A stretch of DNA of 64,000 nt from Escherichia coli (GTDB lineage: Bacteria; Pseudomonadota; Gammaproteobacteria; Enterobacterales; Enterobacteriaceae). Below, one piece after another: positions 30,698 to 31,284 of the stretch. Numbering within the stretch: position 1 is the stretch's first letter; every line of letters begins with the position of its first letter. The notes beneath the pieces are model-generated. The model saw nothing but the letters and a program-made list of their open reading frames with translations, ran no database searches and was not told where the DNA came from. The position numbers were made by a program, and so were the translations under genes. Location of the stretch: the NCBI RefSeq assembly GCF_024700885.2, contig NZ_CP117016.1; one strand, written 5' to 3'.

Positions 30698-31036
30698 TCA
30701 GGCCTCCGCCGGTAGCCGTAATCGATTTGCCGAGCCGCAGACGGCGATTTTGCTTCTGACCACCTCTTTCATGGCGTCCATGCCAACCCGCATGTAAAAG
30801 CGCGGATCGTTGCTCTGCTGATTTTCAGCAAACCAAGCTTTGATAGCGTCAGAGAAGGCGATCTTCAACTCGGTTGCAACGTTGACTTTGCAGACGCCTG
30901 GCCCAATGGTGCGACGAACATACTCATCCGGCACATCGCTCGCCCCATGCAGCACAAAGCGGGCAAAACAAACGGCATAAATTCCATTTGTTTTGCCCGC
31001 TTTGTGCTGCCTCACCATTTCTGTCAGATGTTTCAC
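30698..31036 (-). pseudogene. kbaZ'-'kbaY fusion remnant (deletion joint within the aga cluster)
   Basis: ORF begins with the KbaZ N-terminus ([22 protein letters not shown]) and continues directly into a class II aldolase C-terminus ([63 protein letters not shown]) as in KbaY/GatY; intervening aga genes absent. Confidence 0.7.
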
Positions 31037-31284
31037 TTTCCTCTCCAGTTCAGATTGCTGCGATATTAATCTTTCGTTTTGTTTCAGTTGATACTGCGTC
31101 ATGGTGAGATAAAAATAAAACGAAAGATAATGGTTTTCTGATCTGATTCACAAAAGAAACATAATGAAAGTCAGTGAAACGAGAGTAGCTTGCGCCAATG
31201 GGCAAGGTGGGCTTGCATTTGCTTAATAGAAAGGCGTTAATAGGCAAAACGAAATGAAACGAAAGTTTTACGAAAGGACTTACT

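Follow-up and report, generated by a model that had tools for sequence, protein, structure and literature searches.

A kbaZ'-'kbaY fusion on an Escherichia coli genomic island, probably the scar of a foreign-derived second aga locus

Introduction

In a 64,000-nucleotide stretch of an Escherichia coli genome (RefSeq assembly GCF_024700885.2, contig NZ_CP117016.1; hereafter the window), a short open reading frame (ORF) joins a piece of kbaZ to a piece of kbaY, both genes of the aga (N-acetylgalactosamine) locus. An earlier note on this DNA read the ORF as an in-frame fusion left by a deletion, and implied that the locus was the resident aga locus of E. coli in remodeled form. What is this fusion, where do its two halves come from, and how was the junction between them made?

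Our comparisons lead us to conclude that the ORF is very probably a nonfunctional scar within a piece of foreign chromosome, which a genomic island of E. coli carries as a second, partial aga locus. As a deletion scar and pseudogene it is an ordinary kind of object; its history is unusually legible, and its value is that of a record.

Composition of the fused ORF

The fused ORF and its parts, listed from the start codon onward, are as follows.

30698-31102, minus strand: the fused ORF (leader, kbaZ', patch, and 'kbaY), 134 amino acids (aa) from an ATG start; pseudogene scar
31037-31102, minus strand: leader, 22 codons read into the fused ORF; the TAA stop of K-12 is CAA in the window
30967-31036, minus strand: kbaZ' remnant of E. 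coli type, the GTG start and codons 1 to 23, by alignment to K-12
30956-30966, minus strand: patch TTGCCCGCTTT, 11 nt, apparently templated, where the ancestral sequence has the 14 nt CCGCACATCCGCTG; exactly reverse-complementary to AAAGCGGGCAA in the opposite arm of an inverted repeat
30698-30955, minus strand: 'kbaY remnant (KbaY from about residue 205 to 286, and the stop), with a C terminus ...LRLPAEA of Enterobacter/Klebsiella type

The product would thus consist of a 22-aa leader, KbaZ residues 1 to 23, four junction residues (FARF), and about 85 KbaY-like C-terminal residues. The GTG start of kbaZ lies at 31036-31034. In K-12 the leader is a 15-codon mini-ORF closed by TAA, a stop also kept in a sister copy of the scar described below (L004); because this codon is CAA in the window, the leader frame enters the GTG start of kbaZ.

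Profile searches resolve the product into two fragments. The KbaZ equivalog model (NCBIfam NF012002) matches ORF residues 23 to 49 with its positions 1 to 27 of 428, at 27.9 bits against a cutoff of 707, and the KbaY equivalog model (NF009375) matches residues 41 to 128 with positions 197 to 284 of 286, at 152.6 bits against a cutoff of 542. The Pfam class II aldolase profile (PF01116) is matched at its C-terminal end only (positions 201 to 277 of 277, on ORF residues 47 to 127). The product therefore falls outside both families as they are defined, namely by a full-length match of about 286 aa at 542 bits for KbaY, the tagatose-1,6-bisphosphate aldolase, and of about 426 aa at 707 bits for KbaZ, the noncatalytic subunit of the aldolase (NF012002/PF08013). 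The KbaY part opens at ...VLHGASD, near residue 205, and all N-terminal KbaY sequence is gone. Most metal-binding and catalytic residues of class II aldolases lie in the N-terminal two-thirds of the triosephosphate isomerase (TIM) barrel, and these two-thirds of the KbaY barrel are missing from the scar. In RefSeq, both halves are annotated as incomplete pseudogenes.

The two halves differ in their affinity. Window positions 30967-32091 are 98.7% identical in DNA to the 5' end of K-12 kbaZ, the intergenic region, and agaR, whereas positions 30722-30955 are 77.4% identical to the 3' end of K-12 kbaY. The C terminus ...LRLPAEA is found in Klebsiella, Raoultella, and Enterobacter; the E. coli type is ...RISA.

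A short-repeat deletion followed by a probable template switch

When the 'KbaY part was used in a protein search, nearly all matches were short fragments and not full-length KbaY. Among them was P0045, the sister copy on metagenome contig L004, which shares 98.1% identity with the window across 6.4 kb and carries the same fusion with the junction ...IYAVCSAHPLVLHGASD... The junction DNA compares as follows.

K-12 kbaZ: GCCGTTTGTTCCGCACATCCG CTGGTGCTG GAAGCT
K-12 kbaY: GTGGATGTTCCT CTGGTGCTG CATGGTGCC
L004: GCCGTTTGTTCCGCACATCCG CTGGTGCTG CATGGGGCG
Window: GCCGTTTGTT TTGCCCGCTTT GTGCTG CATGGGGCG

The L004 junction is clean, with a 13-nt overlap of the kbaZ and kbaY homologies. The two genes share a direct repeat, CC(G)CTGGTGCTG, of 9 to 12 nt: 9 nt (CTGGTGCTG) are common to both genes within K-12, and 12 nt (CCGCTGGTGCTG) to E. 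coli-type kbaZ and Enterobacter cloacae/Enterobacter soli-type kbaY, with copies 6.96 to 7.07 kb apart. The lost interval is bounded by the repeat on each side, with a single copy left at the L004 junction, as in other microhomology deletions that arise by replication slippage or illegitimate recombination. Unlike in a generic deletion of this class, the repeat is here a coincidental string coding for the same tetrapeptide, PLVL, in two different genes (codons 27 to 30 of kbaZ and about 203 to 206 of kbaY). Because it is read in the same frame in both, the resulting chimera is automatically in frame.

The window junction has undergone a further change. Its kbaZ-derived DNA stops at 30967, the patch occupies 30956-30966, and kbaY-derived DNA runs from 30955; relative to the clean form, 14 nt (CCGCACATCCGCTG) beside the junction have been swapped for 11 nt (TTGCCCGCTTT). 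The sequence of which the patch is the exact reverse complement, AAAGCGGGCAA, lies 25 nt upstream, and the patch string recurs in the window in this opposite arm only. Together the two arms form a perfect inverted repeat.

30949-31010: perfect 24-bp inverted repeat, with arms at 30949-30972 and 30987-31010

The stem reaches 27 pairs (one of them G-T) around an 8-nt loop, and the DNA hairpin is predicted at -34.2 kcal/mol (z = -10). An imperfect form of this repeat, a quasipalindrome native to kbaZ, is present in K-12, in strain NCTC86, in L004, and in a second island family represented by L033 (see below); the corresponding hairpins are predicted at -17.5 kcal/mol in K-12 and -17.8 kcal/mol in L004. 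The change thus started from an imperfect inverted repeat, was clustered, copies the opposite arm, and made the repeat perfect (24 of 24 positions), which is the defining signature of a putative quasipalindrome-associated template switch. Such switching is an established and well-studied class of E. coli mutation (PMC7202029, PMC5941160). As in the Ripley-model mutations recovered in E. coli reporter assays (PMC7202029), an imperfect repeat has been perfected by a clustered change templated from the opposite arm. Unlike reporter-selected mutations, the event in the window is natural and fixed, lies in a pseudogene, has its pre-event state preserved in L033 and L004, and would have replaced 14 nt by 11 nt in one step. 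Since the net loss is 3 nt, the reading frame survived.

The direction of change can be read from the orthologues. Of the 13 kbaZ orthologues examined, 12 keep the motif AVCSAHPLVL, the exception being Morganella with PYVL, and the kbaZ sequence at the patch site is unmodified in L033, so that the clean junction is ancestral and the palindromic form derived. The derived form occurs in all of the approximately 301 E. coli copies from complete genomes that span the junction, and the clean L004-type junction in none of them. L033 (with kbaZ continuing past the site), L004 (after the deletion), and the window (after the apparent template switch) make up a rare natural three-state series, documenting a short-repeat deletion and then a quasipalindrome correction. 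A search of Rfam returned no match at the scar.

The fusion ORF claimed by the earlier note exists exactly at its position, on the minus strand, and both the profile searches and the alignments to K-12 kbaZ and kbaY (98.7% and 77.4%) bear out its two-part nature, as opposed to a single intact gene. Several details need correction. The ORF does not start with the KbaZ N terminus, which comes after the 22 leader codons; the KbaY-like portion is real, at about 85 residues instead of about 95; and the breakpoint, placed at about 30970, lies at 30955-30967. The note further expected a precise deletion breakpoint. The deletion is upheld, but a simple breakpoint is not, the template switch having apparently rewritten the 14 nt beside the junction. 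The 24-bp inverted repeat was absent from that note.

Donor-type arrangement in other genera

A scan of one genome per species for the MalX-type phosphotransferase system (PTS) protein encoded next to the scar yielded 28 loci, and the parental gene order is present in about 20 species loci. On chromosomes of Enterobacter, Citrobacter, Kluyvera, Yokenella, Morganella, and Aeromonas the order is garD / agaR / kbaZ-agaV-W-E-F-A-agaS-kbaY-PTS-patB-like-(gene for a 637-aa protein). In these donor-type loci garD lies directly beside agaR, with no prlF-yhaV between them, and in the three Enterobacter loci checked rsmI follows immediately beyond the 637-aa gene in convergent orientation.

The window holds a 7.8-kb segment, rsmI'-637aa-patB-like-malX-like-scar-agaR-garD', that is collinear with the Enterobacter/Kluyvera-type chromosome and lacks the interval from about codon 30 of kbaZ to about codon 205 of kbaY. 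From 'kbaY to rsmI', collinearity with Enterobacter extends through 5.4 kb, with about 86% nucleotide identity, compared with 72 to 77% to Escherichia, and the PTS protein of five Enterobacter species shares 96% aa identity with that of the island. The segment thus resembles the extended aga operon of Enterobacter and Kluyvera in gene order and orientation from garD to rsmI. It differs from that operon in its location on a mobile island, in the loss of the middle 7 kb or so, in the truncation of garD and rsmI, and in the E. coli-like sequence of agaR-kbaZ'.

Two observations concern the distribution of the PTS-side genes. In Escherichia sp. MOD1-EC7003, of a non-coli lineage, kbaY and agaB of the native aga locus (L020, 7956-13889) are separated by genes for a MalX-type PTS and a PatB-like protein; it seems, therefore, that E. 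coli proper lost these genes and regained a copy via the island. A 5.3-kb contig in a metagenome-assembled genome labeled Collinsella sp. (L005, JAIJJM010000184.1) carries a 'kbaY fragment and encodes PTS, PatB-like, and 637-aa proteins that share 100% identity with their counterparts on the E. coli island, and is almost certainly a misbinned E. coli contig.

Mosaic structure and the order of events

The change from foreign to E. coli-like sequence and back can be followed along the segment.

25602-25850, plus strand: rsmI' remnant (RsmI aa 204-286), left end of the foreign chromosomal chunk
30967-32091: kbaZ'-agaR tract, 98.7% identical to K-12 and about 78% to Enterobacter
32092-32162: 71-bp garD-agaR linker without an E. 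coli counterpart, in place of prlF-yhaV
32163-33335, minus strand: garD pseudogene, truncated at its 5' end and with an internal deletion of about 205 bp
32165 to about 32680: 3' part of garD, about 94 to 97% identical to K-12
About 32680-33300: remaining garD, holding the deletion of about 205 bp, about 78% identical to K-12 and to the other genera compared

The same foreign aga chunk, scarred differently, is present in a second island family. This family is represented by L033 (strain FDAARGOS_1295, 6800-13700, beside the sfa fimbrial operon) and comprises, by subtraction, roughly 324 further complete genomes. In L033, kbaZ' continues to about nt 291, where a CCAAA microhomology marks its junction with the 3' end of agaS. 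A further fusion links kbaY with the 3' end of the PTS gene, 242 bp are missing from agaR, and garD is free of the 205-bp deletion of the window. The E. coli-like tract nevertheless starts at the same place in garD in both (K-12 positions of about 6360-6420), and both share an AGG variant in kbaZ codon 9. From this we infer one ancestral mosaic, of E. coli type from the garD 3' end through agaR into kbaZ and of foreign type through agaS, kbaY, and the PTS gene, in which independent deletions then occurred; the switch in identity would therefore coincide with each junction.

The history would then have begun with a donor-type garD...rsmI arrangement lacking prlF-yhaV, of which the island holds the part from rsmI' to garD', as judged from the comparison with other genera. 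Recombination with an E. coli-type aga locus may next have made the garD 3' end, agaR, and at least the first 291 nt of kbaZ E. coli-like, giving the mosaic parent. To judge from the sister copy L004, about 7 kb were subsequently lost between the two copies of the 9- to 12-nt PLVL direct repeat. Finally, comparison of L033, L004, and the window suggests a template switch in the kbaZ quasipalindrome that turned CCGCACATCCGCTG into TTGCCCGCTTT from the complementary arm, creating the perfect 24-bp repeat.

A one-step origin, with homology in garD/agaR anchoring E. coli aga DNA and microhomology joining this DNA to foreign kbaY, so that tract and deletion were made together by homology-facilitated illegitimate recombination, appears improbable. 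It would account directly for the switch from E. coli-like to foreign identity falling exactly on the deletion junction in the window island, and for such a switch at a different junction (kbaZ nt 291 or so to agaS) in the second family, both junctions lying in microhomology. However, the garD tract boundary and the AGG single-nucleotide variant are common to both families and point to one tract acquired before two deletions; L033 retains, in its island context, E. coli-type kbaZ to at least nt 291, past the breakpoint of the window; and prlF-yhaV, to be expected in any fragment of a typical E. coli locus, is missing from the tract.

The reading preferred here, a foreign piece with an ancestral E. 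coli-type tract and later deletions, has evidence weighing against it as well. The two families are closer to one another in the tract (97.5%) than in its flanks (94% and 84.5%), and a single ancestral mosaic would need further recombination to produce this pattern. The absence of prlF-yhaV from an E. coli-like tract is awkward here too, since the native loci of K-12 and NCTC86 carry both genes. The exact mosaic parent, with intact E. coli-type kbaZ and window-type kbaY, was found in no genome, and the closest relatives on the PTS side reach only about 86% DNA identity. Further, a block of about 750 bp (window 30548-31293, L004 600-1350) that comprises the promoter, leader, scar, intergenic region, and first 70 nt or so of the PTS gene is about 9% diverged between the window and L004, compared with at most 1 to 2% in the flanking genes. 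This exceeds the neutral expectation from the synonymous divergence (dS) of the flanking genes, 0.012 to 0.019, and could reflect recombination, local hypermutation, or an assembly chimera, L004 being a single metagenome contig. Read-through from the kbaZ promoter, taken up below, is also something that we infer.

The spacer between garD and agaR varies among these loci. Both native E. coli loci examined (K-12, L002 6863-7859; NCTC86) have prlF-yhaV there, and all other genera examined and both island families do not. A candidate native garD-agaR junction without prlF-yhaV, H87, was rejected, as it turned out to be the second island family. The 71-bp linker of the window contains a GCCCGATAA...TTATCGGGC hairpin and matches neither E. 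coli nor Enterobacter/Kluyvera spacers.

Function of the scar

The scar product, lacking most of both proteins, is a predicted pseudogene without an enzymatic role, because it scores far below the cutoffs of both families, because the L004 copy has a premature TGA and several radical substitutions, and because the ratio of nonsynonymous to synonymous substitution (dN/dS) between the window and L004 is about 0.4 (17 changes). In comparison with Enterobacter, the PTS gene and the PatB-like gene have dN/dS values of 0.03 to 0.07. The 134-aa ORF is intact in a protein cluster of 270 members, and a variant of the fused protein, P0002, is truncated. For annotators, the 134-aa "class II fructose-bisphosphate aldolase" entries of this cluster call for caution, as they are chimeric relics.

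That selection instead maintains the fusion as a functional element, be it a small protein or an RNA or DNA hairpin controlling the downstream PTS operon, seems highly improbable. The frame was kept through both events, the ORF is intact in the 270-member cluster, and a very stable perfect hairpin is fixed in every one of the approximately 301 spanning E. coli copies, in what is presumably the 5' leader of the PTS operon. However, the E. coli copies are all at least 99.4% identical, and neither ORF intactness nor fixation of the hairpin is then informative about selection. Similarly, a repeat made up of identical codons necessarily yields a fusion in frame, and a change of -3 nt preserves the frame by a one-in-three chance. 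The stop codon and radical changes of L004, the truncation of P0002, the retention of only about residues 197 to 284 of 286 of KbaY at scores far below both cutoffs, and the lack of a U-tract after the hairpin also argue against selection.

Island setting and the separate native locus

The scar structure is present in 311 of 5,426 complete E. coli genomes (about 6%), at no less than 99.4% identity, and each carrier listed has two matching places in its genome. PTS-side DNA without the scar was found in none of the complete E. coli genomes. The module seen in these strains is very probably an Enterobacter-like chromosome piece, partly overwritten with E. coli-type sequence. The neighbors of the scar in NCTC86 and in strain 2013C-4538 include a P4-type integrase, insertion sequence (IS) fragments, the deoxyribose operon deoQKPX with an ilvN' relic, and a gene for an AAA-domain protein of 1656 aa. 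The island of the window adjoins phoH and has its integrase at 10294-11496. NCTC86 has in addition a complete native locus, garD-prlF-yhaV-agaR-kbaZ-agaVWEF-agaA-agaS-kbaY-agaBCDI-yraHIJK-rsmI, at 3.61-3.63 Mb; the island copy lies 2.6 Mb away, and its tract differs from the native copy of this strain at 15 of 1125 nt.

That the resident aga operon of E. coli underwent an internal deletion from its kbaZ to its kbaY is barely credible: the agaR-kbaZ' half is as close to K-12 as such an event would leave it (98.7%) and K-12 kbaZ and kbaY share the 9-nt CTGGTGCTG at the right positions, but identity to E. coli kbaY is only 77% in the 'kbaY half, the genes downstream of it are not those of the E. 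coli aga locus, island genes flank the scar copy, carriers have two matching places, and for NCTC86 the complete native locus elsewhere refutes it.

The deletion described in the earlier note, which removed agaV, agaW, agaA, agaS, and most of kbaZ and kbaY, is supported by the intact parental arrangements of other genera, with agaE and agaF to be added to the list. Its further point that the divergent agaR-kbaZ promoter was preserved also stands, given 98.7% identity to K-12 and the presence of operator-like TTTCGTTT repeats. What does not stand is the implied remodeling of a resident locus, as the copy is a second one borne on an island, with the native locus of NCTC86 2.6 Mb away; nor is the kbaY half that of E. 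coli (77%), being collinear with Enterobacter at about 86%.

Within the aga cluster of K-12 itself, a 2.3-kb deletion (agaW'-'agaA) is likewise internal, with truncated genes and an inactive copy of the pathway (K-12 annotation; PMC3668189). The scar in the window differs from it in removing about 7 kb from kbaZ to kbaY, in producing an in-frame fusion, in belonging to an island-borne, foreign-derived copy, and in having its junction apparently rewritten by a template switch. The setting resembles the deoK-carrying islands that occur in commensal as well as pathogenic E. coli (the PAI AL862-type; ROD40 of NCTC86), with deoQKPX and ilvN' 2 to 3 kb from the scar, a P4-type integrase, and IS elements. 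An aga/gar remnant is not described in the deoK-island literature searched, a search outside which the original island papers lie, and the ORF table of the LAC pathogenicity island (LAC PAI) does not list one.

In related islands, vpe (four ORFs) and deoK (four ORFs) are adjacent. The published supplementary table of the LAC PAI gives VpeR as a LacI family protein and VpeA as an ascorbate-type IIA. The PTS cluster of the window was considered as the published vpe carbohydrate-permease operon (Martinez-Jehanne 2012) and ruled out, since it has AgaR, of the DeoR family, and a MalX-type IIBC, versus the LacI/ascorbate-type proteins of vpe.

Control region, island agaR, and downstream genes

The features on either side of the scar are the following.

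31037-31284: divergent agaR-kbaZ control region (P_R/P_Z), preserved; 31072-31264 holds four TTTCGTTT repeats that resemble AgaR operators
31285-32109, plus strand: agaR, island copy, intact, 274 aa; AgaR equivalog score 463 bits against a cutoff of 260
29013-30584, minus strand: MalX-type PTS EIIBC gene directly downstream of the scar, by profile search; intact
27826-29004, minus strand: PatB/MalY-family C-S lyase gene, by profile search; intact
25923-27836, minus strand: gene for a 637-aa signal-peptide protein with no Pfam or NCBIfam family; labeled "enterotoxin" by the Prokaryotic Genome Annotation Pipeline (PGAP)

Across the whole window there are six TTTCGTTT-type matches where 0.77 are expected, and the four clustered ones belong to the stretch conserved with K-12 at 98.7%. 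The last five aa of the island AgaR differ because homology to E. coli stops at 32091. At the native locus P_R, P_Z, and P_S are promoters bound by AgaR, and P_S is located within the interval that is missing from the window (PMC3668189). The deletion would accordingly have taken away P_S and set the AgaR-repressed P_Z, with its operators, about 0.45 kb upstream of the PTS, PatB-like, and 637-aa genes. A simple scan between the scar and the PTS gene found neither a minus-strand terminator-like site nor a convincing promoter. Because the control region is preserved, P_S is lost, and no terminator-like site intervenes, it is likely, on sequence grounds, that P_Z now drives the PTS, lyase, and 637-aa genes by read-through, under the control of AgaR and N-acetylgalactosamine. 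An AgaR-controlled promoter would then be the likely driver of an otherwise uncharacterized module of PTS, lyase, and secreted protein. In the second family (L033), the PTS gene is deleted and agaR is broken as well.

A more far-reaching proposal is doubtful, namely, that the deletion and the perfected hairpin together form a new regulatory leader. In such a leader, N-acetylgalactosamine would control the MalX-type PTS, the PatB-type lyase, and the uncharacterized 637-aa secreted protein by way of the island AgaR and the captured P_Z, the 27-bp stem would affect translation or the stability of the transcript, and the second AgaR would cross-regulate the resident aga regulon.

Extended aga operons of Enterobacter, Yokenella, and Aeromonas end with the gene for the 637-aa protein, conserved at 50 to 92% aa identity. 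This conservation suggests a role in the use of amino sugars or glycans and not that of a toxin.

Other features of the island

In the window, the integrase is about 1.7 kb from phoH (region 7537-11496), with no tRNA gene detected between them. The module of NCTC86 (1.02-1.04 Mb) is about 240 kb away from phoH, so that the island module occupies different chromosomal sites among strains. The ilvN' fragment (acetolactate synthase small subunit), at about 34297-34523 on the plus strand, abuts deoQKPX, of which deoQ is at 34534-35319 on the minus strand. It looks like a further chromosomal relic brought in with cargo, like garD' and rsmI' around the aga chunk.

Toward the end of the collinearity with 2013C-4538 (40448), Rfam gives a weak tRNA-like match at 39683-39750 on the plus strand (30.7 bits, not called by ARAGORN), followed by a match to the small RNA STnc100 at 40169-40383 on the same strand; this site may be an internal island boundary or a remnant of an attachment site. 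Two Rfam matches to group II introns (domain V/VI), at 59235-59314 on the minus strand and 60751-60830 on the plus strand, are inverted and lie on either side of an IS-type transposase ORF (59704-60675). The Ysr251 antisense RNA family has a strong match at 8403-8596 on the minus strand (192.8 bits), overlapping the 3' end of phoH.

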